A program made the position numbers and the translations under genes. A stretch of DNA of 15,397 nucleotides from a candidate division WOR-3 bacterium (lineage in GTDB: Bacteria > Hydrothermota > Tepidihabitantia > SM23-42 > JAOAFX01). Positions 1-14,732 of the stretch are shown piece by piece. The number at the start of each line of letters is the position of its first letter. Within the stretch, counting starts at the first letter, position 1. Where the stretch lies: NCBI GenBank assembly GCA_039802265.1, contig JBDRWI010000054.1, positions 1 through 15,397 on the forward strand, in the 5' to 3' direction. The notes under the pieces were generated by a model. The model was given only the letters and a program-made list of their open reading frames with translations, did not search any database and was not told the origin of the DNA.

Positions 1-145
1 TTTGTACATCCAAGTCAACATCTTTTTCTTCAATCAACTCTAATTTAACCTTCGGCTCTCCTTGAGCCGTATCCTTTTCCTGGGCATAAAGCCAAACACT
101 TACTACAAACAAGGCAATGACTGTGGTCAAGATAAACTTACGCAT
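1..145 (-). CDS. Gene A1 (5' part only; runs off the left edge): secreted protein with the constant signal peptide of the A family
   Basis: ATG at 145 preceded by AAAGGAGG. Translates MRKFILTTVIALFVVSVWLYAQEKDTAQGEPKVKLELIEEKDVDLDVQ..., open to the window edge. Bases 1-127 match 5263-5389 (gene A3). Confidence 0.9.
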   Translation of the reverse strand, partial: MRKFILTTVIALFVVSVWLYAQEKDTAQGEPKVKLELIEEKDVDLDVQ

Positions 146-168
146 AAAGCCTCCTTTCACTCTCACCA

Positions 169-321
169 TCATCCTCTCCATTCAAGGAGGACAGAAATGA
201 GGGTTGTTTCCTTAATTGCCTTGAATTCTGATTTGCTAAAAAATAAACAAAAATTTGTTTTAATAAAGTTTGGGGGGGTATATTGCATAATCTTGAGGTT
301 TCTTAAAATCCTTAAATTCAT
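169..321 (-). CDS. Putative leaderless leader peptide (50 aa, MNLRILRNLKIMQYTPPNFIK...WRG) crossing a C7A3 tract
   Basis: ATG at 321 lies 8 nt after the -10 box. Its TGA (169-171) overlaps an ATG in frame with gene A1 (ATGA). Confidence 0.4.
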   Translation of the reverse strand: MNLRILRNLKIMQYTPPNFIKTNFCLFFSKSEFKAIKETTLISVLLEWRG

Positions 322-329
322 TATGATAA

Positions 330-357
330 ATTATATCCATAAATTCCCCTTTGTCAA
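330..357 (-). promoter_or_regulatory. Sigma70-type promoter, TTGACA-N16-TATAAT, for cassette 1
   Basis: Perfect -35 (352-357) and -10 (330-335) hexamers with an A/T-rich upstream segment. Confidence 0.8.
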
Positions 358-1493
358 GAAAAATTTTTGTGTAAATAAAAGCATCTGATACCTGATATTC
401 TGACCACCTTCACCTTCGGATTGAAGTTGTCAACCAAAACTGTATCAACGGCGATTGCTGAATCTCCGGAATGTGCCCAGACCTTGATTGTGGTGATGTA
501 ATAGCCATCAGGAAACCTTGCATCCTCTATTGAATCCGCATTTCCTGTGCCCGCAATATTTATCTTCGTTGGCCAGCAGTTTTCTTGAATGTTGGATAAA
601 CCGTAACCAGACTGGGGAAAACCACTACCACAATTTGTAACAATATACCAGTTGTTAAAATGTCTGGAAAGTGTATCCGCACCGGTATCCGCATAGGTAA
701 TATAATATTTCAACGAATCCGAAATCTTTATTGTATCCCGCATCTCAAACATCTTTCTAAAGGGAATGCTCCCACCGGTAGTTAAAGGTTCCACACCATA
801 ACCAATCGCATAGACACCACAACAAGGGTTCAATTCAACATCCGTATGTGCCTTTACAATAATATCAACCGAATCCCTTAAATAAGTTGTCTCGTAAGAA
901 TTAGTTATACTTTCTAATTTGTCTTTGACATAATAAATCTTCCAGGGATGGTGGGGCGTGCCCAAACGCTCATCAATATAAGAAACTTGAGAAGGTGAAG
1001 GGGAAAGGCTATCCAAAGGATTTAAATAACCCGTGAGTTCAGAATAGTCATTATTGCTGCGCTGAAAATGAAGATGGTCATTGTTAAAAGCTTGAAACCG
1101 CGCAACACACCCCAGACTATCACCGATATGAACGCTATCGCCTCTGCGAAGTGCAGTATCAGGATGAATATGTCCGTAATGCCAGGCCAAAGATTGGAGA
1201 GTATCCAGTGCGATGTTTATAAAACCACTATCACTCTCGGTTCCTAGGCGAATGAAAGACACTACACCATCTATAACCGCCCGAACAGTTGTACCCGAAT
1301 CTGCAGGAATATCCACACCACCGTGAAATCCCATGGTTGTATCAGGATGCACTTTGAATCCATTCCAATCGCCGTAGGTCTTGTTTATCGTATGAGATGC
1401 ATTTTGGGGTGCTATTGGCCAGGGTATACCATTTGTAAGGTTGATAAAGATTAAGCAGAGAATTATTAGAATTATAACTTTATTTTTCTTCAT
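354..1493 (-). CDS. Gene B1: secreted M23-family zinc metallopeptidase domain protein, apparently C-terminally truncated (379 aa)
   Basis: Likely start MKKNKVIILIILCL at 1493 after GGAGGTG, overlapping the A2 stop. Motifs HGGVD (1311-1325), YGH, HLHF (1068-1076) and NPL. The last codons read into the promoter repeat and the TGA stop lies inside TTGACA. Confidence 0.85.
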   Translation of the reverse strand: MKKNKVIILIILCLIFINLTNGIPWPIAPQNASHTINKTYGDWNGFKVHPDTTMGFHGGVDIPADSGTTVRAVIDGVVSFIRLGTESDSGFINIALDTLQSLAWHYGHIHPDTALRRGDSVHIGDSLGCVARFQAFNNDHLHFQRSNNDYSELTGYLNPLDSLSPSPSQVSYIDERLGTPHHPWKIYYVKDKLESITNSYETTYLRDSVDIIVKAHTDVELNPCCGVYAIGYGVEPLTTGGSIPFRKMFEMRDTIKISDSLKYYITYADTGADTLSRHFNNWYIVTNCGSGFPQSGYGLSNIQENCWPTKINIAGTGNADSIEDARFPDGYYITTIKVWAHSGDSAIAVDTVLVDNFNPKVKVVRISGIRCFYLHKNFS

Positions 1494-2874
1494 CTGACAC
1501 CTCCGAAGAGATTTTATAAATGAGCAACTCCGGCTCAGAACTCGGAAGAAAGAAGTAGCCCGACGGAGAGAGTCCAATTGCATTTTTTAACTCATGCGAA
1601 CCATCCCATATAATGTTACCCCGGACATCTAATAAATATGCTGGATGATGCTCTGCGACTTGCGAAATAAAAAATATTGCACGTCCACCTTTTGACACTA
1701 TTGGTTTTTTATAAGAATGACCACCAAGGACTTTTTGCCATAAGATCTCACCATTATCAGTTCGAACAAAATATGTAGTGTCTTTATGTGTCCTCAATAT
1801 AAGGTAGCGTCCGTCATACGAAAAAGCCGGATAGTATGCGGCATGGTTATACGTATTGACAAGAACACCTTTCTCATTAAGCAAGAAAATCCCCGATACA
1901 GATGCAGCTACATATTTATGATTGGGAGATACTCCAATGCATGGAATAGTGTGAGGCCAGTTACCACGCAATTCCGTCCCCCATAACTTATTACCGTTTC
2001 TGTCATAAGCGACAACCGCCATTACAGCAGTGTCATTTTGCCTAGTTTTTGTTAATGCACAAAACATCTCACCATCGGCTGACATATCGTGAGATCCTTG
2101 TGGACCCCAAAGACCACTAACTTTCTTTATCTCATTACCATGTTCATCGTAAAAAATCACTGAACTGAAAAAATGATAACCCGGAACTCCTACTGCCACC
2201 CGCCCATCATTAGATATGTACCTCGGAGGCTCCATATCTTCTCTTTCCCACAACACCTTTCCATCTTCGGTCTCCATCATAATGAATTTCTTATATTCTT
2301 TTTTCTTACTCATGGTAACTTCTTTTATCTTATCATTGAGACTGTCGCTAATCCTCAACCAATAGTGCATACTATCTCTGTATTCGGGTATTTTCTTCTC
2401 GGTCTCGCGCTCCCATTTTGTCTGCCATTGGGAATACCTCTTATATGCATCTAACCATTCGTCCCTCAACTTTTTAACTTCGTCAGCCGTCATTCCACCA
2501 TAATCCGTATGCGCCGCGTAGACAATCATATACTTTAGATTTTGTGAAGTTGTAATTGATTGTAAGTCGTCAGGTAGTTTTATCGCCTTACCATCATTTA
2601 TATATAAAACCTTTTCTCTTCTGGCAATCTCAATACGCAGACTATTCAAAAGCCAGTCTTTGTCTTCTTGAGGGATTTCTTTATCTTCCAGGATTTGTCT
2701 TATCTCCGGCGGAGGAAAACCCTCAGGACCAGCCATCAATTCACCCAATTCCTTTTTGTAAACTAACTCCAATTTTACCTTCGGCTCTCCTTGAGCCGTA
2801 TCCTTTTCCTGGGCATAAAGCCAAACACTTACTACAAACAAAGCAATGACTGTGGTCAAGATAAACTTACGCAT
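1480..2874 (-). CDS. Gene A2: secreted beta-propeller-like (PQQ/WD40-type) protein, 464 aa from MRKF
   Basis: AAAGGAGG RBS and Sec signal peptide ending LYA|Q. Repeated blade motifs DGKVLW, NGNKLW, NGEILW, RGNIIW, plus a charged helical insertion. An alternative in-frame ATG is at 2901. Confidence 0.85.
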   Translation of the reverse strand: MRKFILTTVIALFVVSVWLYAQEKDTAQGEPKVKLELVYKKELGELMAGPEGFPPPEIRQILEDKEIPQEDKDWLLNSLRIEIARREKVLYINDGKAIKLPDDLQSITTSQNLKYMIVYAAHTDYGGMTADEVKKLRDEWLDAYKRYSQWQTKWERETEKKIPEYRDSMHYWLRISDSLNDKIKEVTMSKKKEYKKFIMMETEDGKVLWEREDMEPPRYISNDGRVAVGVPGYHFFSSVIFYDEHGNEIKKVSGLWGPQGSHDMSADGEMFCALTKTRQNDTAVMAVVAYDRNGNKLWGTELRGNWPHTIPCIGVSPNHKYVAASVSGIFLLNEKGVLVNTYNHAAYYPAFSYDGRYLILRTHKDTTYFVRTDNGEILWQKVLGGHSYKKPIVSKGGRAIFFISQVAEHHPAYLLDVRGNIIWDGSHELKNAIGLSPSGYFFLPSSEPELLIYKISSEVSDEEK

Positions 2875-3052
2875 AAAGCCTCCTTTCACCCTCACTATCA
2901 TCCTCTCCCTTCAAGGGAGAGGGCAGGGGTGAGGGTTGTTTCCTTAATTGCCTTGAATTCTGATTTGCTAAAAGATAAACAAAAATTTGTTTTAATAGAG
3001 TTGGGGGGGTATATTGCATAATCTTGAGGTTTCTTAAAATCCTTAAATTCAT
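2867..3052 (-). CDS. Putative leader peptide, copy 2 (61 aa), crossing a C7A2 tract
   Basis: Same ATG position relative to the -10 box as in copies 1 and 3. The shorter tract shifts the frame, so the stop overlaps the A2 start (ATGCGTAA). Confidence 0.4.
   Translation of the reverse strand: MNLRILRNLKIMQYTPPTLLKQIFVYLLANQNSRQLRKQPSPLPSPLKGEDDSEGERRLYA
2888..2936. repeat. REP-like GC-rich hairpin immediately upstream of the gene A2 RBS
   Basis: Inner stem CCTCTCCCT/AGGGAGAGG (2902-2922) and outer stem ACCCTCAC/GTGAGGGT. Resembles the widespread CCCTCACCCCxxCCCTCTCCC-Nx-GGGAGAGGG palindrome. Confidence 0.8.
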
Positions 3053-3060
3053 TATGATAA

Positions 3061-3088
3061 ATTATATCCATAAATTGCCCTTTGTCAC
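3061..3088 (-). promoter_or_regulatory. Promoter copy 2, GTGACA-N16-TATAAT
   Basis: -10 at 3061-3066 and -35 at 3083-3088 with a T>G change relative to copy 1. Confidence 0.65.
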
Positions 3089-4125
3089 GCAAAAAATTTT
3101 GATATCTGCGGCAATCACCTTGACCCAATAATAGCCATCTTTAAATCTTGCCTCTTCTATTGAATCCGCATTCGCTGTCCAGGTCTTGTTTATTTTTGTT
3201 GGCCAACAATTTTCTTTTACATTACTTAATGCACCAACTATTACCTGAAAAGTATCCCGATTGGTCACAATGTATGGGTTAGCTTGCGCAGCAAGATAAT
3301 TCCAATTGGTTCTATACCCCTTAGCATAAACCAAATCCCGCTTTATCGTATCTGTTGCCTCATCACTCGCCAAGTTACCAAAATCCATTAACCAATAGCG
3401 GGGGATTACTATATTACCACGGATGTCACTAACTGCATAACTTATTGCCTCAATACCACTTTGATCATTTCCCTCCAGGACATTATGAGCCTTTACAATA
3501 ATATCCACAGAATCGTGAAGCCACACATAGTTAAGGGGACTCTTTTGCGATAAGTTATCTAAGGTATCGGGACTTCTGTCTTTACGGTAAGTAATAGTAT
3601 CAATAATTGGTGTTGATGTGGGAGGGGGAGTGAGATAATCAAGCGGATGTTCAATATTAACCAGTTCCCAGATTTTCATCAAATGAAGGTGGTCAGTTTT
3701 GCCACCAACAGAATCAGGCCAATCACAAACCTTACCGAGATAAAAATTAGTAGTCGGAATTACAGTCGCATTTGTTGAATCTTTTAATGCTGTCCTATAA
3801 GTAGTATCAATGGCATAAAGGTGGGCGTAACGCCAGTAATAATGGTATCAGAGACTGAGGTAGAAATATCTATCCTACCTGCGTTTAAGTTTAATGAATC
3901 TGCATTTGATGTGTAATCCCTAACAACCCCAATGATTACAGCCATGACTGTGTCCCCAACGGCGGCCGGTATATCAACGGCATTGTGAAAACCAGCCCAT
4001 CCAACATAATCACCCATAGTATAACTTATTGGAAGTGCTACATTTTGTGGCTCAAAAGGCCAAACTACTTGTCCAAGTAAAATACTACAGAAAGCTAAAT
4101 AAGGAATAAGAACCTGTCTTCCCAT
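3062..4125 (-). pseudogene. Gene B2: M23 peptidase domain protein, frameshifted and C-terminally truncated
   Basis: 5' frame has a signal peptide and FHNAVD (H-D codons 3973-3987). After a one-base shift at ~3835-3847 the frame reads YYWRYAHL...GKTDHLHLMKIW...HPLDYL and continues into ORF 3062-3682, ending ADSIEEARFKDGYYWVKVIAADI and then promoter-repeat sequence. Confidence 0.88.
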
Positions 4126-4126
4126 G

Positions 4127-5407
4127 TTAATCCTCCCTGCTTTTTATCTTAATCTTATAATATTTCTTTGGGTGATGCGCCACTACAATAATTTCATCAC
4201 TGGCGACGAAGTCTATATCAATTGTTGTTTCTCGTGTAAAAGTCGGCAATTCGGTTTTGGCAAGAAATCCGGTCTTTACATCAAAAAGAAAAACCCACCG
4301 TTTACCTCCACCAAAAGCAAAGGCGGCAATTAAACTATCATTTTTTGAGAAGACACACTTCACAATCTCAGGTAGTCCTTGTGTTTCCTCCCATTGCCAC
4401 TGCCAGATAATGCCTCCTTTGATACCGTCTAATAAATAAACGTAAGTCGGCCTCTTTTCTACTCTATCTTCCCACACAACAATGAAGTTGCCAGTGAGAG
4501 AATTACTCATAATAAATCCGCCACCCTTTTTGTCAACTATTGGCTCAAACTTTTGTAGTAGTCGTCCACTTTGATCTACAAAAATAACTCCTTCATAATA
4601 TGACTGACCGATTATTCGATCGGTAAACACAAAGCACGGTTTTCCAGGATCTGAAGGAATAAAATGCTTTCCCTCTGCAATATATTTCCACAATTCATTG
4701 CCATTTTTATCAAATGCATATATAACATCATTTTTGCTGATACCACCAGGGGTATCGCCTGGAGTCGTAACTATAAACATTTCACTGTTAGGCGTCCAGC
4801 CCGCTGACCAAGTATATGGATGCGGTAAGTCAAAAACTTTTCTTAAACTCCCATCTCTACCATCGTAAAAATACAGTTTCGTGGCTTTATAATAAGGAAG
4901 GTGTTCTGTGTCTTTAAAGACTACGATTCTTGAACCATCATTACTAATATTGACTTTAATTGTGTAAGGAGGAGATGGCGGTAGCCACAATATCCCTTTA
5001 TCATCTTTGCGATAAAGTTCCCAAATTTTTATGCCTAGTGAATCAAAAAATATAAATCTATCTGCATTGTCACCAAATTCACCATAAGGAAGGTAACGAA
5101 TACCGATAAATTTACCATTTGATGAAGAATACACATCACACCAAGGATATGCATGATCGGGCATCTGTATTTCTTGAAATATGTGCTTATTCTTTGAAAA
5201 GAAAATAACCGTTTTCTTATCTCCGATGACAAACGATTTCCCTTGCATCAGTGCAATTTCCATTTGTACATCCAAGTCAACATCTTTTTCTTCAATCAAC
5301 TCTAATTTAACCTTCGGCTCTCCTTGAGCCGTATCCTTTTCCTGGGCATAAAGCCAAACACTTACTACAAACAAGGCAATGACTGTGGTTAAAATAAATC
5401 TACGCAT
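4127..5407 (-). CDS. Gene A3: secreted beta-propeller-like (PQQ/WD40-type) protein, 426 aa from MRRF
   Basis: Same RBS and signal peptide as A1/A2. Blade motifs DSLGIKIW, DKNGNELWKY, DQSGRLL, GGIIWQW, FDVKTG. Stop lies 1 nt before the B2 ATG. Confidence 0.85.
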   Translation of the reverse strand: MRRFILTTVIALFVVSVWLYAQEKDTAQGEPKVKLELIEEKDVDLDVQMEIALMQGKSFVIGDKKTVIFFSKNKHIFQEIQMPDHAYPWCDVYSSSNGKFIGIRYLPYGEFGDNADRFIFFDSLGIKIWELYRKDDKGILWLPPSPPYTIKVNISNDGSRIVVFKDTEHLPYYKATKLYFYDGRDGSLRKVFDLPHPYTWSAGWTPNSEMFIVTTPGDTPGGISKNDVIYAFDKNGNELWKYIAEGKHFIPSDPGKPCFVFTDRIIGQSYYEGVIFVDQSGRLLQKFEPIVDKKGGGFIMSNSLTGNFIVVWEDRVEKRPTYVYLLDGIKGGIIWQWQWEETQGLPEIVKCVFSKNDSLIAAFAFGGGKRWVFLFDVKTGFLAKTELPTFTRETTIDIDFVASDEIIVVAHHPKKYYKIKIKSRED

Positions 5408-5430
5408 AAAGCCTCCTTCCACCCTCACCA

Positions 5431-5592
5431 TCATCCTCTCCCTCCAAGGGAGAGGGCAGGGGTGAGGGTTGTTTCCTTAATTGCCTTGAATTCTGATTTG
5501 CTAAAAGATAAACAAAAATTTGTTTTAATAAAGTTTTTTTTGGGGGGGGTATATTGCATAAACCTGAGGTCTCTTAAAATCCTTAAATTCAT
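5431..5592 (-). CDS. Putative leader peptide, copy 3 (53 aa, MNLRILRDLRFMQYTPPKKNFIK...GGRG)
   Basis: ATG 8 nt after the -10 box, crossing C8A8. TGA overlaps the ATG at 5434 that is in frame with A3. Confidence 0.4.
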   Translation of the reverse strand: MNLRILRDLRFMQYTPPKKNFIKTNFCLSFSKSEFKAIKETTLTPALSLGGRG

Positions 5593-5600
5593 TATGATAA

Positions 5601-5628
5601 ATTATATCCATAAATTGCCCTATGTCAC
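5601..5628 (-). promoter_or_regulatory. Promoter copy 3, GTGACA-N16-TATAAT
   Basis: -10 at 5601-5606 and -35 at 5623-5628. Confidence 0.65.
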
Positions 5629-5850
5629 GCAAAAAATTTTGATATCTGCGGCAATCACCTTGACCCAATAATAGCCATCTTTAAATCTTGCATCTTCTAT
5701 TGAATCCGCATCAACCGAATCCGGCTAACCAAGTTTCTGTTTGGTGTTCCAGTAGCGGTCAACTACCTGATTATTCACAATCCGGTTCGTAATCCAGTAA
5801 TAAAAAGGGCTTGCTGCTGTATAATTATGTCGGTCGTAAACAAGTAAAAC
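5620..5850 (-). pseudogene. Gene B3 remnant (3' anchor region of a third B allele)
   Basis: Manual translation: VLLVYDRHNYTAASPFYYWITNRIVNNQVVDRYWNTKQKLG*PDSVDADSIEDARFKDGYYWVKVIAADI. In-frame TAG at 5725-5727. No start, signal peptide or M23 domain upstream. The 5' boundary is approximate. Confidence 0.82.
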
Positions 5851-5887
5851 CGGTGCACAATTGCCAGCCCTAATTAGTCGCCCACGA

Positions 5888-6031
5888 TGTCATTGCAACC
5901 CCTTGCCAACTCTTCTTGGTCTCAGTAGAGAAAACAGGGGCGTGGCACTCTCATAATTTAGCCACTAGCAGTTGGCTATTAGCCAATAGCAAACATGAAA
6001 TTGCTTTGTCGCTTCACTCCTCGCAATGACA
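5888..6031. mobile_element. Degenerate MITE/REP-like palindromic element (TGTCATTGC...GCAATGACA type)
   Basis: 9-bp terminal inverted repeats. The right arm ATTGCTTTGTCGCTTCACTCCTCGCAATGACA resembles a common GTCATTGCGA-type palindromic repeat. Internal 7-mer run TAGCCAC TAGCAGT TGGCTAT TAGCCAA TAGCAAA. Confidence 0.65.
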
Positions 6032-6147
6032 AAAAGGAAAAACAGAGTGTTAAAATTTTTTATGCTCAAAAAATGGTATAAAACCGCTCTGGTACTGCAC
6101 TTGACCGGAGTTCATCAAAAGGAGTATGAATAATCCGGGCTAATCTC

Positions 6148-6175
6148 TTTACAATTTCTTTTTTTTCGTTATAAT
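6148..6175 (+). promoter_or_regulatory. Sigma70-type promoter, TTTACA-N16-TATAAT, giving a probably leaderless mRNA
   Basis: ATG at 6182 is 6 nt after the -10 box, with no Shine-Dalgarno. T8 run in the spacer (6159-6166). Confidence 0.7.
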
Positions 6176-6181
6176 AAAGCA

Positions 6182-6955
6182 ATGAATTTCATTACAATAT
6201 ATTTTAGTATTATATTTGCAGGAACTTATACTTCTCCGATTTGTAATCTAACCGCCACTAAAATAGATAGCATTCAGCAATCAGAAGACCGATCTTCGTG
6301 TCTTACACAAAGTGTAGTATTCTGTGCTTCAAATATACCGCCTATGTTTACATTGATTGATACGAATTCATATTGGTCTTTGACGATTGCCTCGGTATAT
6401 GGTTATTCATGGTTGCTCAGAAAATCACTAAGGAAATTTTCGGATAAAATTCCCCTGCCCCTTGGTTTGAAATTCGCAATATGGGGAGAAGGTTCAGGCA
6501 TGCTCTTAGAAAGTTTTGCAATAATGGATAATTTTAGACTTCCGGACAGCGAAAAGATACTTTTACACCCGGATACAAAGACTGACCTTTATCTCGCCTC
6601 GGGTTTCTACGCACCGTTTGTATGTACATGGTCTTTCCTTGCTAACAAATACGATTACACACCACGGGATATATTCATTATCTCCGGGCTTAGCGGTATT
6701 GTAATAGAGCAATCCGGTGCGATATTCAAATCTTTCAACCCTGTTGCCTGGGGATATGTCTTTTTGGTCTATGGCTCCTACCAGGCATTGCCAGGATTGC
6801 TCGTAGAAAACCAATTAAAACAAAAGCAGCGGATAAAATTATCCTGGCAGAAAAAATACTTGTATGGCTTTGGTGGTCAGGCGGTCTCTTTTGTTCTTGC
6901 AGGTGCTACGATCTACGCACTGGCAAAATTCGGCAATGTCCAGTTTGAAAAATGA
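6182..6955 (+). CDS. Hypothetical multi-pass membrane protein (257 aa)
   Basis: Only long + strand ORF. Hydrophobic N-terminus and several hydrophobic segments (e.g. IFIISGLSGIVIEQ, VAWGYVFLVYG, YGFGGQAVSFVLAGATIYALA). Confidence 0.8.
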   Translation: MNFITIYFSIIFAGTYTSPICNLTATKIDSIQQSEDRSSCLTQSVVFCASNIPPMFTLIDTNSYWSLTIASVYGYSWLLRKSLRKFSDKIPLPLGLKFAIWGEGSGMLLESFAIMDNFRLPDSEKILLHPDTKTDLYLASGFYAPFVCTWSFLANKYDYTPRDIFIISGLSGIVIEQSGAIFKSFNPVAWGYVFLVYGSYQALPGLLVENQLKQKQRIKLSWQKKYLYGFGGQAVSFVLAGATIYALAKFGNVQFEK

Positions 6956-8794: not shown

Positions 8795-10600
8795 CTAATC
8801 TATCTTGATTACTTTCTGATAAATAATCTCCTTGCTTTTTTTCTCTTCATATTTTATAAAATATACTCCACTGGAAACCTTTTGACCAGAATCATCATCA
8901 CCCGACCAGACAATCTGGTTAAATGGTTGAATGGTTAAATGGTTAAATTGTTTAACCACCCGTCCCGTAACATCATAAACCATTAATAAAATTTCGGATT
9001 TCGGATTGCGAATTGCGGATTTGTTTGAAATTTGGGAATTGGGATTTGTTTGGGATTTGGGATTTGGAATTTGGAATTTAATCACGCAGTGATTTGTAAA
9101 TGGATTGGGATGGATTTCTAATTTCGGATTTCGGATTGTGGATTGCGAAATTGTGATTTCTTTGACGCCCTGTGTACGTCTGATACAAAAGACTGGGGAA
9201 TATGTGGAATCATATCGCCCATTACCCTTAACCACCAACCAGAGATAGTTTGCCATATTAGCCTGGGTATCAGGAACTACCCAAGCACACATCGTATCTG
9301 TTGGTAATCCTTCATAAATCAAATGGCAACCAAACTGATAATGTGCCCAATATAATCTCAATGAATCAAGGGCAATTGTCTCATCAAGTCTCCATCTTGG
9401 ATAGACGGTATCATTCGCCCAGAATGTATCATACTGAACCGGACAGAACCAGATGACATCCGGGGTCTTTTCATAGATTCGGGTATAATTATTACCTGAT
9501 ATTACAATCTCATTTAAGCCATTATTGTCAAGGTCGTTGGTAATTCTGATTGATGAACCTAAAGAATTTCCCGACAATGTCTGCCATACATAGAATGAAT
9601 CATTTCCTGCTGACTTGATAATATAGACATAACTCGCTGCCTCAAGGCAGATTTCAGGGATTGAATCGCCATCAATATCACCGGCATCAGAATAGCCACC
9701 GCCATAGTCCCAGTGTTGAGCATTAGGAAGATGGAAGGATTTGATGATTTGGTAGGTATTGTTTCCTGTTGCCTCAAAGATAAAACAATCAGTCCGGGCA
9801 TCCGGCACAACAAATCCCTTTACCACAAACTCTAACTTCCCATCACCATCGGCATCAGGAACGGTAAAGCAGTCACGAATATTATGGGTAAGTAAATATC
9901 CTTGAGAAACCTTTTTGTAACTATTATCACCAATGCATTCATAAATCCAATACCACTCATCGGCTCCAGCGGGCACAAATTCAATTTTGTTATCGCCGTC
10001 GAAATCTCCAAAAGCTATAGTTGCCGCAGGCGCCTCGCTGCCGGTTGTATCAGGATTAGTAGCAAAAATTAAATCATATTGATTATTACCTATAGATTCA
10101 TAAATTCCGAGATACCCATAAGGAGTAGTTCTATTTTTAACAATTTCAGGTATACCATCCTGATCAATATCATAGCCACAAATAGGTAAGACCAGAGGTG
10201 GTCCCACCGTATCTCTCCACACTTCCTGGGTGGGATAGGAAAAGGAATCAGGAGATTCAAAGATGGAAATACCCACCCACCAGCGTTTCGCTTCGCCACG
10301 CTGCGCAACAATATCATAAAGACCATCACCATCAAAATCGCCAATATCCCATAAATTAAGTGGGTGATTGGGATGCGGAAGCGAATCAACTTGCCAAGTG
10401 TTGGGTGGTATATATTTGTAGAAATAAAGTGTATATCCGCCACCAACATATGTAGCAAAGATGAGTTCATAATGCCCATCTCGGTCAACATCCCTGCTGC
10501 AAATTTTTCCTCCCGCTCCAAAATCCAATCCTTTTGGAATATACCATTTCTGCACGAAACCAGAAATTAAAAAGCCGAAAAATAAGAGCCATCCTCCCAT
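8795..10600 (-). CDS. FG-GAP/VCBS-repeat (Ca-binding propeller) protein with FlgD-like/T9SS type-A sorting CTD (601 aa)
   Basis: DxDxDG motifs (DVDRDG, GDFDGDG, DIDQDG, DADGDG, GDIDGD, DLDNNG). CTD HPNPF...VYDVTGR...WSGDDDSG...SGVYFI...KVIKID. GGAGG RBS. Confidence 0.92.
   Translation of the reverse strand: MGGWLLFFGFLISGFVQKWYIPKGLDFGAGGKICSRDVDRDGHYELIFATYVGGGYTLYFYKYIPPNTWQVDSLPHPNHPLNLWDIGDFDGDGLYDIVAQRGEAKRWWVGISIFESPDSFSYPTQEVWRDTVGPPLVLPICGYDIDQDGIPEIVKNRTTPYGYLGIYESIGNNQYDLIFATNPDTTGSEAPAATIAFGDFDGDNKIEFVPAGADEWYWIYECIGDNSYKKVSQGYLLTHNIRDCFTVPDADGDGKLEFVVKGFVVPDARTDCFIFEATGNNTYQIIKSFHLPNAQHWDYGGGYSDAGDIDGDSIPEICLEAASYVYIIKSAGNDSFYVWQTLSGNSLGSSIRITNDLDNNGLNEIVISGNNYTRIYEKTPDVIWFCPVQYDTFWANDTVYPRWRLDETIALDSLRLYWAHYQFGCHLIYEGLPTDTMCAWVVPDTQANMANYLWLVVKGNGRYDSTYSPVFCIRRTQGVKEITISQSTIRNPKLEIHPNPFTNHCVIKFQIPNPKSQTNPNSQISNKSAIRNPKSEILLMVYDVTGRVVKQFNHLTIQPFNQIVWSGDDDSGQKVSSGVYFIKYEEKKSKEIIYQKVIKID
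8917..8948. repeat. In-frame octamer tandem repeat (GGTTRAAT)x4
   Basis: GGTTAAAT GGTTGAAT GGTTAAAT GGTTAAAT, encoding FNHLTIQPFNQ. Confidence 0.9.
8991..9165. repeat. Two in-frame heptamer tandem-repeat blocks (ATTTSGG-like; 8991-9079 and ~9114-9165)
   Basis: Units ATTTCGG/ATTGCGA/ATTTGGG/ATTTGGA, encoding QIPNPKSQTNPNSQISNKSAIRNPKSEI and ISQSTIRNPKLEI. Confidence 0.9.
9341..9484. repeat. 144-bp exact direct repeat shared with 13420-13563
   Basis: Identical by base-by-base comparison. Encodes TRIYEKTPDVIWFCPVQYDTFWANDTVYPRWRLDETIALDSLRLYWAH. Confidence 0.92.
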
Positions 10601-10650: not shown

Positions 10651-12909
10651 CTACTCCAGTTTTATGAGTTTGTGTGTGAATGTCTGTTTGGTATCAGAAA
10701 TATCAACTCTCAGGAAGTATACACCCGGCGCAACCTTTCTACCATATTCATCTCTGCCATTCCAGATGATTTTTTCAGATGGATTGTTGAATTGTTCTAT
10801 TAACCTTCCAGAAACATCGTAGATTTTTATTGCAAGTCTGAAGCCTTGCCCTACATCCTCGTTGGAACTTTGAGATTCAAGATTTGTTCGGAATTTAATA
10901 ATGCAGTGATTTGTGAAGGGATTGGGATAGACCTCAAGTCTCCCTGTCTCCAAATCTCCTTGTCTCCCTCTCTCTTCAATCCCCGGCAGTAATGAACTTG
11001 CATAGACCTGAATGCCGTTAGAACTATTTGAGACAAAGATGAGTGTATCAAGAACCTCAATACCTTGTGGGCTATAAGGTGTTGTGTAAAAACCTACCTC
11101 AAGTGGATTGTTTATGGCAGAAATATCAATAATCTTTATGTAGCCACAAGTCCATTCTGAGGATGAGAGCACCGCATAGCTACCTTTTACAGATAGTCCA
11201 TAAATTGTGCCATTTGTAGAATAAGATGAGATAAAGGTTGGATTTGATGGATTTACAATATTGAGAATTGTTAAACCATTACTGGTTCCTATAAATGCAA
11301 AGGTATCCTTTATTGCCAGTGAATAACTCGTCCCGCTATTGTAATAACCAATCTGATAAGGACTCAATGGGTTTGTGATATCATAGACCCAAAATCCAGG
11401 ATTGATATAACCAACTGTGTAGGCGTAATCCCCGTTTACAACAATTGCCCTTGCCTCACCTGTGGTATCTGTAGCAACCACATAAGGATTTGAGGTGTTA
11501 GCAATATTTACTACAGTCAGTCCACCACTACCACAGGCAATGAATGCGAAGGTATCTTTAATCGCAACATCACGGGCATAATATGTGCTACAGGCACTCA
11601 CCTGAGTAGGATTGGAGGGCACGGAAATATCAAGAATTCTGAGATAGTATCCATCAGCAACAAATAAATAGGGATATTGTAAGAAACCATTCCAGGAGAA
11701 AGAAACGGAGTTTTCAAAATGACCTATTTCTGATGGATTATGCAGGTCAGTGATATTAAGAATATAAACCCCTGAATATGCGTCAAAGAGATAGAGATAA
11801 GGATAATTGATCAGGGAATTAAAGGCATATCCTGGGGTATCAAAGAAACCGAGTTCGTAAGGGTTTGAGGGATTTAAAATACTGATTATCCGCAAACCTT
11901 TATCTCCATCCGCAACCAGAGCAAGGGTATCAAAGGAGAAACCGTCCTCTGCCGAACCAGGTGTATTGTAATTACCAACAAGAACTGGATTTAGCGGGTC
12001 CGTGACATTGATAATATTCAATCCGTTTCCGCGGGAAGCAAGATAGACAAGAGTATCTTTGACATAGATTCCCCAATTACTACTTGCTATTTGAGATTGA
12101 ACCACCACCACAGGATTTGATGGCGTAGCAATATTGACTATTGCAAAATTTGGTGTTGGGGAGTAGCAGTAACTACTGACATAGGCAAATGTGTCAAGAA
12201 TTGCAACATCTACTGGTGGAGACATAAAACTACAACCACCAATCTGAGTTGGATTTAGAGGGTCAGTGATGTCAATAACTGCGAGTTCTCCATACGAGAA
12301 ATGACACACATAGGCATAGTTCCCTGAAAGGGCAACATTGGTGCATTGTTGAAAGAGATAGCAACGAGCAACCTCATAAGGGTTTGTGGGATTGCTAATA
12401 TCTACAACGACAAGCCCTGAATCCTTGCTTACGACATAGGCATAAGGTGGGCACACGGCAAGCCCCCAGGCGCCATTGCCAAGGAAAGAACCGCCAAGAA
12501 TTTCACAACCACCTATTCTCAAAGGCACTGAAGGGTTGGAAACATCCCAGATTTCAAAGCCGTAAGTCCAATCCGAGAGATAGAGAAAATTGTTAAGATA
12601 TACCAATCCAAGGATTCCACCACCCCTTGTTTTAATCCGTGAGACCTCAATAGGATTTGAGGGGTCAGAAATATCAAGGATAAATACTCCACCGCCAGAG
12701 CCCAAATAACAAAGGTCCCGGAGCGAGTCGTAAGCAACTGCACAGGAATAGCCAAATGGCCAGTTGCCAACAAAATGAACATTCAAGGAATCAAACCGGG
12801 AATAAAGACTACCAGTTATTTGATAATCTCTATTCCAGTATTTTTCAGGCATATCTTCAAATGGAAAAAGATAAGCCTGTGCCCCTATTAAAAAGAATAT
12901 TACTAACAT
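10651..12909 (-). CDS. LVIVD-repeat beta-propeller protein with FlgD-like/T9SS type-A sorting CTD (752 aa)
   Basis: More than ten repeats of the form YAYV..G.L.(I/V)(I/V)D(I/V)SNPxNP..(V/I)G. Short signal peptide, AGGAGG RBS. CTD YPNPF...IYDVSGRLI...WNGRDEYG...PGVYFL...KLIKLE. Confidence 0.93.
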   Translation of the reverse strand: MLVIFFLIGAQAYLFPFEDMPEKYWNRDYQITGSLYSRFDSLNVHFVGNWPFGYSCAVAYDSLRDLCYLGSGGGVFILDISDPSNPIEVSRIKTRGGGILGLVYLNNFLYLSDWTYGFEIWDVSNPSVPLRIGGCEILGGSFLGNGAWGLAVCPPYAYVVSKDSGLVVVDISNPTNPYEVARCYLFQQCTNVALSGNYAYVCHFSYGELAVIDITDPLNPTQIGGCSFMSPPVDVAILDTFAYVSSYCYSPTPNFAIVNIATPSNPVVVVQSQIASSNWGIYVKDTLVYLASRGNGLNIINVTDPLNPVLVGNYNTPGSAEDGFSFDTLALVADGDKGLRIISILNPSNPYELGFFDTPGYAFNSLINYPYLYLFDAYSGVYILNITDLHNPSEIGHFENSVSFSWNGFLQYPYLFVADGYYLRILDISVPSNPTQVSACSTYYARDVAIKDTFAFIACGSGGLTVVNIANTSNPYVVATDTTGEARAIVVNGDYAYTVGYINPGFWVYDITNPLSPYQIGYYNSGTSYSLAIKDTFAFIGTSNGLTILNIVNPSNPTFISSYSTNGTIYGLSVKGSYAVLSSSEWTCGYIKIIDISAINNPLEVGFYTTPYSPQGIEVLDTLIFVSNSSNGIQVYASSLLPGIEERGRQGDLETGRLEVYPNPFTNHCIIKFRTNLESQSSNEDVGQGFRLAIKIYDVSGRLIEQFNNPSEKIIWNGRDEYGRKVAPGVYFLRVDISDTKQTFTHKLIKLE
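10832..10854 (-). repeat. GTAG-type REP-like palindrome embedded in frame in the CTD
   Basis: GTAG-G-GCAAGGC-TTCA-GACTTGC: a GTAG tetranucleotide followed by an imperfect hairpin. Encodes VGQGFRLA. Confidence 0.65.
10898..10980. repeat. 83-bp direct repeat (1 mismatch) shared with 13163-13245; contains a GGAGAYNN octamer run
   Basis: Encodes IEE(R/T)GRQGDLETGRLEVYPNPFTNHCII in two otherwise unrelated genes. Confidence 0.9.
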
Positions 12910-12921
12910 AATTGCCTCCTT

Positions 12922-14691
12922 TTACTCCAATTTTATTACTTTTTCTATTGCAAAAGATTTCTTCCCATCGGTGACTTGAACAAAATAGACGCCGGCAGGA
13001 AGTTTATGACCAGAATCATCATCGCCATCCCAGAGAATTGGTGATTGGTAATTGGTTAAATGGTTAAATTGCCTTACCAACTGTCCAGCGGAGTTGTAGA
13101 TTTTTATTGTAATTTGGGATTTGGAATTTGTTTGGTCATTGGGATTTGGGATTTGGAACTTGATAATGCAGTGATTTGTGAAGGGATTGGGATAGACCTC
13201 AAGTCTCCCTGTCTCCAAATCTCCTTGTCTCCCTGTCTCTTCAATTCCTGGTGCACGCCTGATATAGAAGACTGGCGAGTATGTAGAATCATAACGTCCA
13301 TTGCCTTCCACCACGAGCCAGAGCCTATTCCCCATATTGCTCTGGGTATCAGGAACTACCCACTGGCAGATTGTATCCTGAGGCAAACCCTGATAAATTA
13401 GATGACAACCCAAAATTGGATGTGCCCAATATAATCTCAATGAATCAAGGGCAATTGTCTCATCAAGTCTCCATCTTGGATAGACGGTATCATTCGCCCA
13501 GAATGTATCATACTGAACCGGACAGAACCAGATGACATCCGGGGTCTTTTCATAGATTCGGGTTTCATTATTACCCGAAATTACGATTTCATTCAGACCA
13601 TTACCATCAATGTCAAAGACCTTGATGTTCGAACCGGTTATATGACCGGGCAAGGTATCCCAAAAATAAAAAGAATTATTACCGTTAGATTTTATTACAT
13701 ACACTTTATCGCATCCCTCAAGAACAATTTCACAATTCCCATCTCCATCTATATCACCCACATCAGATAGTCCACCCCAATAATCGTAGGAATTGTAGTG
13801 AAAAGAAAAAGAGTCAATAATCTCATAAGAATTGTCACCGGTTGCCTCAAAAATTTTGGTCTGGATTGTATAAAATGGGTGAGTCAAAATGGTAAAACCT
13901 TTAAGCACGAATTCCATCTTCCCATCACCATCCGCATCCGGAACAGAAAAACAGTCAATTATGCCTTCTGTGTTGATACTATCAAGGTGGACTAATTCAT
14001 AAGTATTATTAGCCGGTGACTCATAGCACCAATAATAGGCGGTATCGGGTTTGCATAAACGGCGACAACCACCAAACACAAATTCTATCTTACCATCGCC
14101 ATCAAAATCACCAAAAGCGGGTAGTGAATGTGGTGCATCAATTGAGTCAATAGGGGTACTAAATACTTTGGAATACGAGTTGTCACCAGTGCATTCATAA
14201 ATATCAAAATTTGATGTATCACCAAACAATTTTATCATCTCCCACATTCCATCCCGGTCAATATCATAAGGGCAGACAAAGCCGCTCATCCCTCCACCCA
14301 TTACCGTGTCCCGCCAGACTTCCAGGGTGGGATAGGAAAAAGAATCAGGGGATTCGAAGATTTGTATCCCTATCATAGGAACACCAAAGTCACCACTTAA
14401 TATAAGGTCGAATAATCCATCAAGATCAAAATCGCCAATCGACCAGGCTATATTAGTCATTGTATCAACAATTAATTCAAGGTGGAAGGTGTCGCCTGGA
14501 TATAACTCATAGATTACAACTCTATCGCCATCATAGGGAATATGATATCCAAAAATCAAGTCAAGCCTTGAATCACGGTCGCTGTCACAAAGTAATATAT
14601 TACTCTCAACGCCATATCCGACTCCATTGTTCAGGAAATATTTCTGCTTAAAATGGAGAGAAATTAGAACAAAAATAATCAAGAGAGACAT
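12922..14691 (-). CDS. FG-GAP/VCBS-repeat protein with FlgD-like/T9SS type-A sorting CTD, paralog of 8795-10600
   Basis: Same DxDxDG repeat architecture and shared IFESPDSFSYPTxEVWRDTV. Likely start MSLLIIFVLISLHF at 14691; the ORF-track start at 14721 is a TTG inside a hairpin. Confidence 0.9.
   Translation of the reverse strand: MSLLIIFVLISLHFKQKYFLNNGVGYGVESNILLCDSDRDSRLDLIFGYHIPYDGDRVVIYELYPGDTFHLELIVDTMTNIAWSIGDFDLDGLFDLILSGDFGVPMIGIQIFESPDSFSYPTLEVWRDTVMGGGMSGFVCPYDIDRDGMWEMIKLFGDTSNFDIYECTGDNSYSKVFSTPIDSIDAPHSLPAFGDFDGDGKIEFVFGGCRRLCKPDTAYYWCYESPANNTYELVHLDSINTEGIIDCFSVPDADGDGKMEFVLKGFTILTHPFYTIQTKIFEATGDNSYEIIDSFSFHYNSYDYWGGLSDVGDIDGDGNCEIVLEGCDKVYVIKSNGNNSFYFWDTLPGHITGSNIKVFDIDGNGLNEIVISGNNETRIYEKTPDVIWFCPVQYDTFWANDTVYPRWRLDETIALDSLRLYWAHPILGCHLIYQGLPQDTICQWVVPDTQSNMGNRLWLVVEGNGRYDSTYSPVFYIRRAPGIEETGRQGDLETGRLEVYPNPFTNHCIIKFQIPNPNDQTNSKSQITIKIYNSAGQLVRQFNHLTNYQSPILWDGDDDSGHKLPAGVYFVQVTDGKKSFAIEKVIKLE
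13037..13158. repeat. In-frame heptamer/octamer repeat blocks in the CTD (13037-13070 and 13111-13158)
   Basis: ATTGGTG ATTGGTA ATTGGTT with GGTTAAAT x2, and ATTTGGG/ATTTGGA units. Encode FNHLTNYQSPI and QIPNPNDQTNSKSQI. Confidence 0.85.
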
Positions 14692-14702
14692 TGCAGTATA
14701 AA

Positions 14703-14732
14703 GTGGTGGAAGGTATAGCAACCTTCCACCAC
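14703..14732 (-). terminator. Perfect 12-bp inverted repeat after the 14742 gene: possible weak intrinsic terminator or stabilising hairpin
   Basis: GTGGTGGAAGGT-N6-ACCTTCCACCAC followed on the - strand only by TTTATA. Confidence 0.55.

Follow-up and report, generated by a model that had tools for sequence, protein, structure and literature searches.

Swappable N-terminal M23 peptidase heads and their upstream beta-propeller partners in a WOR-3 bacterium: the upstream part of a candidate head-swapping locus for a type IX-secreted peptidoglycan hydrolase

Why would a bacterium keep, one behind the other on the same strand, several nearly identical promoters that each lead into a different secreted beta-propeller-like gene and then into a different peptidase gene that breaks off early? 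The question is raised by a contig of an uncultured hot-spring bacterium of candidate division WOR-3 (JBDRWI010000054.1 of assembly GCA_039802265.1), whose entire length of 15,397 bases was analysed and is called the window below; gene A denotes the propeller-like partner and gene B the M23 peptidase gene behind it. A preliminary description, made from the letters of the window, took this array for an inverted polymorphic toxin/immunity system. Its observations are partly confirmed here, and its interpretation is partly supported. We suggest, at a probability of roughly 0.55, that the array forms the upstream portion of a locus that swaps the heads of a giant peptidoglycan hydrolase secreted by a type IX secretion system (T9SS), in which A would serve as the cognate periplasmic inhibitor. 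The architecture, in other words the modular heads, the anchors, and the polarity of the array, is very probably as we describe it; the role of A as an inhibitor or immunity protein in antagonism is put forward tentatively.

All genes of the array lie on the minus strand, where they follow one another from 5' to 3' as the remnant of a B gene, repeat 3, A3, B3, repeat 2, A2, B2, repeat 1, and the start of A1 (Table 1). The window is the whole contig, with nothing to the left of base 1, and its end inside repeat 1/A1 is a typical assembly break. A repeat search and BLASTN agree on the three direct repeats, spaced by 2729 and 2533 bases, that had been noticed earlier, and they are 92–94% identical over 338–414 bases. 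In a three-way alignment, the 5' part of the repeat contains the B codons for ADSIE(D/E)ARF, the B stop, and a promoter-like site, and the 3' part consists of some 185 leader bases, among them a G+C-rich palindrome, followed by AAAGGAGG, an ATG, and 37 identical A residues. The sigma-70-like site of repeat 1 scores 12/12 and those of repeats 2 and 3 score 11/12 each; the B2 stop sits in the -35 hexamer of repeat 1. Each repeat does, as had been claimed, supply a promoter, a ribosome-binding site (RBS) in the form of AAAGGAGG-ATG, and a common N-terminus of A, and the view that a variable unit is bracketed by two conserved DNA anchors is supported. The A start is likely to be the RBS-proximal ATG, nine codons into the predicted open reading frame (ORF). 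What remains of A1 is 98% identical to A3 over 48 aa. The coupling of A2 and A3 to divergent B genes is borne out, in that B2 begins inside the 3' end of A2 and B3 begins one base past the A3 stop, and the gene overlap suggests that A and B are co-transcribed; the expectation of an intact B3 is not, for B3 is frameshifted.

Table 1. Positions of the repeats and of the A and B genes in the window
Feature	Position	Strand	Remark
Remnant of a third B head: 3' end, in-frame TAG, then B3-type truncated tail	5862..5620	-	read directly
Repeat copy 3: anchor and tail of B, promoter 5628..5601, palindrome-containing 5' leader, RBS, signal-peptide region of A	5711..5283	-	
A3: secreted (signal peptide) beta-propeller-like partner, intact	5407..4127	-	426 aa from RBS-proximal ATG
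B3: M23 head, orphan pseudogene	4125..3062	-	frameshift near 3835-3850; cut 21 codons past DGYY
Repeat copy 2: promoter 3088..3061, hairpin ~2936..2889	3171..2750	-	
A2: secreted partner, conserved N-domain (~residues 31-180) then 7-bladed propeller	2874..1480	-	464 aa
B2 ORF	1493..354	-	379 aa
B2 head: signal peptide, M23 domain, beta-sandwich, conserved anchor	1493..408	-	residues 1-362 of a 1739-aa T9SS protein
B2 alternative tail: 17 codons and stop	407..354	-	unique to the window contig; marks junction to repeat 1
Repeat copy 1: promoter 357..330	440..21	-	
A1: first 48 codons of a third A gene, A3-like	145..2	-	cut by contig end

The palindrome just 5' of the A RBS is 53–61 bases long in each repeat and folds at -34.5 kcal/mol (z = -2.8). 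Copies of 80–97% identity lie on 18 further contigs of the same genome, which marks it, to judge by its sequence, as a dispersed element resembling repetitive extragenic palindromic (REP) elements, and its dispersal accounts for the loose contig ends at 2904, 2938, and 5471. A search of Rfam with window positions 1–6200 gave no match at E up to 1.

B2 belongs to peptidase family M23 (PF01551, 43.3 bits against a cut-off of 28.7), and divergent heads agree in its zinc and catalytic residues: H57, D61, H140, and H142 are each either invariant or conserved to at least 90%. Its structural model, with a predicted local distance difference test score (pLDDT) of 87.2, has a LytM-type fold and finds DipM, EnpA, LytU, LytM, and lysostaphin as best matches; the 17-codon tail stays below 50. 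The head of B3 is 38–41% identical to that of B2 and retains both HxxxD and HxH, with the frameshift falling between the two motifs. The Logan contigs of four hot-spring sequencing runs were compared with the window; these are contigs, not reads, from one study that is possibly the source of the window itself. The contigs of three of these runs (X1, X2, and X3) each cover the frameshift site with no differences, and a break reproduced in three runs is not an error of this assembly. With the idea of a programmed frameshift in mind, the site was inspected by eye only, and no slippery heptamer was seen. Farther upstream, about 75 residues of a B protein remain. They are 57% identical to the B3 tail over 79 aa and 84%, 80%, and 75% identical to heads in three other loci (L034, L018, and L015, respectively), which argues that a third head type once stood upstream. 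The earlier statement that all three B genes stop shortly after the same ADSIE(D/E)ARF(P/K)DGYY motif is accurate for B3; the third gene is this remnant with its stop, and the truncation of B2 is doubtful, being found on this contig only.

Complete relatives reveal what such heads belong to. Full-length B proteins have 1158–1739 residues and consist of an N-terminal M23 domain, the anchor, a long stalk, and a C-terminal Por_Secre_tail domain. The B protein of genome G020 (1583 residues) is 70% identical to B2 over residues 1–364, with its M23 domain at 55–147 and its T9SS sorting domain at 1499–1580. A second, P0185, which NCBI lists as a T9SS sorting-domain protein from a metagenome-assembled genome of WOR-3, has 1739 residues, an M23 (PF01551) match of 40.6 bits, and a sorting domain at residues 1660–1736 (PF18962 and TIGR04183, 43.4 bits against 27 and 35.6 bits against 23). 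Both combine a signal peptide with a sorting domain, as type A cargo of the T9SS does; the 379-aa B2 and B3, as they stand in the window, stop before the stalk and carry no sorting domain. When 14 B elements were aligned, a variable head of about 330 residues, with about 25–30% identity between types, was followed by the common anchor YWNTKQ..ADSIE.A.F.DGYY..VDNFNP[RK]VK and then by the conserved stalk. Within the first 760 residues of the B2-type family, the anchor is the best conserved stretch (73–76% mean pairwise identity), and the other 30-residue windows reach 37–62%, except for two (76% at 631 and 62% at 661). The T9SS is represented in the host: SprA (TIGR04189), the core T9SS gene that was searched for, scores above its cut-off on contig C29, and the genome holds 149 sorting-domain matches. 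The full-length relatives thus bear out both parts of the earlier proposal, a variable N-terminal enzyme head and a constant scaffold ending in a T9SS sorting domain.

P0185 is 100% identical to B2 over residues 1–362 and then reads KETYPTNWYHW..., on into the stalk and the sorting domain. It and two near-identical proteins sit on contigs of 17,094, 21,986, and 22,214 bases, and the 379-residue form of B2 is found on one contig only, that of the window. The contigs of X1, X2, and X3 also follow B2 to base 407 and then continue for 2794, 2794, and 1151 letters, respectively, that are unlike the window; the first 30 letters past 407, in the frame of B2, translate to ETYPTNWYHW. As the head continues in frame both in sister assemblies and in per-run contigs, bases 1–406 of the window are an alternative path. 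Two origins are conceivable for this path: a genuine but minor arrangement, with repeat 1 and a further A behind a truncated head, or a chimera joined at the anchor. To judge from these sequences, the natural form of B2 is probably not truncated. The metagenome contigs, from which records of this genome may be absent, gave no match to an exact 42-base pattern taken from the tail of B2.

This raises the suspicion that the whole tandem layout is a chimera of strain variants. That the contig ends inside a repeat and that X1–X3 leave it at 407 to continue as stalk would be expected of such a chimera, as would the confinement of the truncated B2 protein to this contig and the further variants that branch off at 111 and 5124. 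The objection reaches bases 1–406, no farther: the contigs of the three runs match 407–2361, 3122–5339, and the repeat-2 segment 2912–3151 without differences, B3 ends in the same truncated tail whichever repeat comes next, and the same design is present in 11 other contigs of other genomes and metagenomes. We consider it very improbable that the array as a whole is an artefact. Depth summed over contigs, among the matches listed, is much lower in bin 208–414 than in neighbouring bins in X1–X3 and somewhat lower over A3-B3 than over A2-B2; sums of this kind are no measure of copy number, nor does the former bear on the junction at 407.

At the branch at 111, the per-run contigs lead to another A signal peptide. 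At the branch at 5124, found in all four runs, a second A shares the first 94 codons of A3 and has a different body below; it is possibly the real A1, and it is a mosaic of a shared N-terminal part and a different propeller, just as P0003 (see below) is in comparison with A2. From the two branches it follows that the population holds more units than the window contig.

The preliminary description had predicted a full-length B after A1, to the left of the window. No such gene can be read here, since the window is the whole contig and the constant region is not in this assembly: a stalk search of the 89%-complete assembly with G020, G023, G008, six metagenome B proteins, and P0185 as queries returned nothing near-identical. 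The best stalk match, on contig C26, was considered as the missing B1 and rejected, as upstream it has a different, enzyme-like head in another frame. This match, an 861-codon frame at C26:26382-28964 on the minus strand, aligns with the C-terminal half of full-length B2 at 43% identity over 845 aa, and the last 250 residues are very similar. By its sequence, the stalk with its sorting domain seems to be a scaffold common to several cargo enzymes.

Does the design recur elsewhere? The preliminary description had proposed a search for A-B pairs in related genomes, and a scan of genome contigs with a profile of the B alignment gave only four loci; A and B profiles were mapped on 25 loci of relatives and metagenomes. 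Gene A ends between -30 and +11 nt from the B start in 25 of the 26 heads with readable upstream DNA, the exception (L027) being a head without its first 87 profile positions. Truncated B genes end in three clusters just past the anchor, at profile positions of about 308–372, 413–420, and 492–495. All 17 assessable ones are followed by an A gene on the same strand, in 16 cases within 600 bases and in one after 1.5 kb; three further truncated elements lie too close to a contig end to be assessed. In all seven other contigs that hold both truncated and long B genes (L014, L016, L017, L021, L027, L028, and L035), the long one comes last, so that full-length B genes with truncated heads upstream of them have indeed been found, and no further A or B follows 13 of the 14 long genes (the exception being L030). 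The stalk is patchily distributed (16 of 271 genomes of the phylum), with multiple copies in G023, G024, and the genome of the window. When 48 genomes of the order were searched with an A profile, a B match lay next to every one of the 15 top-scoring full-length hits (covering model positions 1–388 or more).

One of these loci also contains an odd fusion: in an ORF at L034:4435-5013, the conserved A signal peptide is joined directly to a carboxypeptidase-regulatory-like segment and an fn3-like segment resembling the B stalk. To judge by its sequence, it seems to have arisen by a deletion from a unit's 5' anchor to the stalk.

The clearest sign of exchange comes from a sister allele. Protein P0193, a B protein encoded on the contig of 21,986 bases, and P0185 disagree at 41 positions, every one of them in residues 3–184 and none in 185–1739, and the A protein P0003, presumably its neighbour on that contig, is identical to A2 up to residue 181, bar two positions, and about 50% identical from 182 to the end. 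This pattern implies that a tract of about 1.4 kb, comprising the propeller of A and the M23 domain of B, was replaced in genes that are identical elsewhere; the A segment brought in has 79% identity to that of another allele, P0005. That the body of A and the N-terminus of B vary as a unit, as first claimed, agrees with these sister alleles, in which propeller and M23 domain are exchanged together. Distant matched pairs form a gradient, with 17–40% identity in the A body, 55–67% in B residues 40–120, and about 75–100% in the remaining head and the anchor, and in L021 and L030 the first 40 residues of B are 95% identical between two divergent stretches. Over 19 pairs, the distances of A and of the B head correlate (r = 0.63; reached in 0 of 2000 permutations), which is weak evidence because neighbouring genes are inherited together. 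The co-variation of A and B is looser than a strictly cognate relation would give, as A diverges far more between matched pairs. A complex prediction for the B2 head (residues 22–365) and A2 (31–464), each with its own alignment, gave 0.52, 0.00, and 0.01 in its runs, where the mark is 0.32, and was not used either way.

Could ordinary duplication have built such an array? If A-B units were duplicated in tandem by unequal crossing-over, with the upstream copies dying, the anchors might simply be their most constrained parts, and no exchange of cassettes would be needed. Decay is certainly visible, for B3 is frameshifted, another head is reduced to a remnant, and the head in L035 has an internal deletion; moreover, the junctions differ between lineages, as if from independent duplications. 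On the contrary, A2 and A3 are 27.6% identical between flanking repeats of 92–94% identity, a contrast that duplication and drift alone do not give, the sister allele displays a clean replacement tract in otherwise identical genes, and the remnant is 80–84% identical to heads of other genomes, which indicates that head types circulate between lineages. Tandem duplication without exchange is thus quite improbable as a full account.

The function of A is less certain than the architecture. The 27.6% identity of A2 and A3 holds beyond their common N-terminus. By inspection, A begins with a Sec signal peptide (...LYA/QE) that no cysteine follows, lacks both a lipobox and a sorting domain, and would thus be periplasmic by default. 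In the model of A2 (pLDDT 86.8), an N-domain that includes a long helical hairpin precedes a 7-bladed WD40/BamB-like propeller; within the A2-type family, residues 31–120 are conserved (60–78%) and the propeller is variable (30–45%). A2 has 32 relatives at 37–70% identity, which are named WOR-3; the closest relative of A3 among 5.8 billion proteins searched is 25–28% identical. Neither A2 nor A3 has a match in NCBIfam, and P0185, A2, and A3 have none in PADLOC. The assignment of A to BamB/PQQ_2 (PF13360) was rejected, as A2 scores 25.3 bits, below the cut-off of 27.6, and A3 has no match. So was a role as the BamB lipoprotein of the beta-barrel assembly machinery (BAM) complex, as A has no lipobox and lies beside B, not beside BAM genes.

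The same architecture could also serve purposes other than antagonism: B could be displayed on the surface as an enzyme for lysis or foraging, or as a variable surface protein, and a switch of its head could alter the substrate range or allow escape from phages or grazers, and A could be a chaperone, an export helper, or a targeting subunit. Such a role would suit the much greater divergence of A than of the B head, as if A faced the outside world or an independent selective agent, and also its generic binding fold, the patchy distribution of the locus, and the stalk and sorting domain common to the other enzyme head on C26, which suggest a general scaffold for display. It is harder to reconcile with the default periplasmic location of A and with the need to restrain an active M23 enzyme, its catalytic residues conserved, while it folds in the periplasm of the producer. 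We regard a role without antagonism as unlikely.

The reading that we prefer, a head-swapping locus with a cognate inhibitor, can be put together as follows. A unit consists of a sigma-70-type promoter, gene A, encoding a Sec-exported beta-propeller, and a translationally coupled 5' part of gene B, encoding a signal peptide, the M23 catalytic domain, and a beta-sandwich. In an array, the last head alone runs past the anchor into the constant stalk (about 1300 residues) and the C-terminal T9SS sorting domain, and for this reason only that head would be exported to the cell surface or the medium. The upstream units would be displaced heads, cut just past the anchor where an old duplication or integration junction leads into the next promoter; they may have arisen when a unit was duplicated or integrated with one end inside B just past the anchor. 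We infer that repeats 2 and 3 have a common junction, that repeat 1 has another, and that G023 has its own. Homologous recombination at the flanks, i.e., at the A leader and N-domain on one side and at the B anchor and stalk on the other, would replace or reshuffle heads, and a stored head could reach the stalk through recombination between anchors. A cognate inhibitor would be needed because the periplasm of the producer, with its own murein close by, is where a T9SS substrate folds; A may be that inhibitor, shielding the murein while the folded enzyme awaits T9SS export, and its diversification may go hand in hand with that of the M23 domain. The full-length gene that this organism expresses most probably has the head of B2; A3-B3 would be an orphan in decay, and the remnant what is left of a still older head.

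Several observations weigh against this proposal. In matched pairs, A is far more divergent than B (29% against 85%, 40% against 79%, and 25% against 64% identity), so that A may move separately from the head or have some other use. The evidence for the swap is a single event, the tract is contiguous DNA, and the co-transfer of A and B could be hitch-hiking; in addition, that P0003 and P0193 lie on one contig is inferred solely from contigs of equal size. The orphan heads keep their start, signal peptide, and promoter and would thus yield protein in the periplasm, an odd arrangement for a toxin. No known inhibitor resembles A, whose propeller fold is generic. No A-only islands, such as immunity genes alone might form, were found in the 48 genomes of the order, and the sole A without B among the loci examined is a lone gene at L030:6823-8016 (397 aa), which begins 563 bases past a long B, has no B behind it, and is followed by an unrelated ORF. 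As for the window, the arrangement of units left of base 407 is insecure.

How does the locus compare with known systems? Rhs, contact-dependent inhibition (CDI; CdiA-CT/CdiI), and MafB loci combine a constant scaffold with a variable enzymatic end, a linked partner, and stored cassettes. The likeness is considerable, as here too a long secreted protein has a constant part and a variable enzymatic end joined at a conserved motif, with a linked partner, displaced cassettes, and recombinational exchange. The differences lie in polarity and place: at this locus, the variable end is N-terminal, the partner gene lies upstream, and the orphans lie on the 5' side with their own promoter, start, and signal peptide; export would use Sec and the T9SS, and a predicted murein hydrolase would act outside the cytoplasm, with toxicity and immunity both putative. 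In Zhang et al. 2012, polymorphic toxins are C-terminal and beta-propellers are reported as not yet known among immunity proteins. The pattern in that work of a conserved scaffold with sharply variable enzymatic domains exchanged by recombination is found here as well, whereas its C-terminal toxin and downstream immunity gene are not, the domain being N-terminal and the partner upstream in 25 of 26 heads. For the TANFOR toxins of Bacteroidetes, which are also C-terminal, T9SS export is a hypothesis only.

A precedent for the gene order is found in Tannerella forsythia, where every gene for a T9SS KLIKK peptidase directly follows one for a potempin, a specific inhibitor of that peptidase that protects the outer membrane; potempins are beta-barrel outer-membrane lipoproteins of 98–132 residues. 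With an inhibitor gene directly upstream of a T9SS peptidase gene there, and A ending at most a few tens of bases from B here, the upstream-inhibitor layout is not unprecedented as a gene order. The partners themselves differ, for A is not a small beta-barrel lipoprotein but a 7-bladed propeller of 420–470 residues without a lipobox. The KLIKK peptidases are of different protease classes, are all full length, and have host proteins, not murein, as targets, and neither truncated orphans nor the replacement of heads on one stalk is described in the sources consulted.

Lysostaphin, zoocin A, and enterolysin A are M23 bacteriolysins, i.e., secreted M23 endopeptidases directed against the cell walls of competitors (PMC9662197). 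The fold of B2 matches those of LytM, lysostaphin, and EnpA; the bacteriolysins differ in being small, in having Gram-positive producers, and in lacking a head-swapping array. Immunity to such enzymes reportedly works through Zif, by a FemABX-like modification of the producer's own murein, and not through a protein inhibitor. Antigenic variation by silent cassettes, as in pilE/pilS, msp2, and the variant surface glycoproteins (VSG), uses cassettes without promoters and concerns surface epitopes only. It resembles the present locus in its two DNA anchors, its incomplete copies nearby, and its one complete expressed copy, and differs in that a cassette here amounts to the entire start of an operon, enzyme head and partner gene included.

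A full-text literature search, in which subscription journals were not covered, found no paper on an N-terminally polymorphic T9SS cargo, on upstream orphan heads, or on the T9SS in WOR-3, and the inverted orphan array appears to be undescribed. It is possible, and we would not yet wager on it, that the locus represents a mirror-image T9SS polymorphic effector system, with swappable N-terminal murein-hydrolase heads, upstream beta-propeller immunity proteins, one constant stalk, and displaced heads on the 5' side. If this were true, it would be the first polymorphic effector-immunity system of inverted polarity; no protein that inhibits an M23 peptidase and no immunity protein with a beta-propeller would have preceded A, and there would be direct evidence for the T9SS in interbacterial antagonism outside the Bacteroidota. 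The inversion has a simple rationale: with the secretion signal at the C-terminus, it is the N-terminus that has to vary. Searches built on the rule of a C-terminal toxin and a downstream immunity gene would miss such a system. The locus is a concrete, testable example in an uncultured phylum, with a defined recombination anchor, and the natural allele swap points to the A propeller and the M23 domain as the interacting parts; A is a candidate for a new class of protein inhibitor of M23 murein hydrolases, enzymes of antibacterial interest. Such arrays also break metagenome assemblies and give chimeric joins, so truncated genes at contig ends need to be checked.

It should be mentioned that other parts of the window bear traces of rearrangement as well. 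Two paralogous FG-GAP genes of T9SS cargo on the minus strand, at 8795-10600 and 12922-14721, share stretches of 80–86% DNA identity. A 100-base segment at 10887-10986 is 94% identical to 13152-13251; the former lies in the sorting-domain region (10663-10932) of an unrelated LVIVD-repeat cargo gene (10651-12909) and the latter in one of the FG-GAP paralogues, a sequence likeness that points to recombination among the sorting-domain regions of different cargo genes. Finally, a short element of the cattgcgagg..gcgacaaagcaat type, at about 5995–6035, lies between the array and a divergent gene at 6182; in the four runs, contigs branch to its left and to its right, where 6000 and 6030 are loose ends, and it is probably another dispersed repeat.

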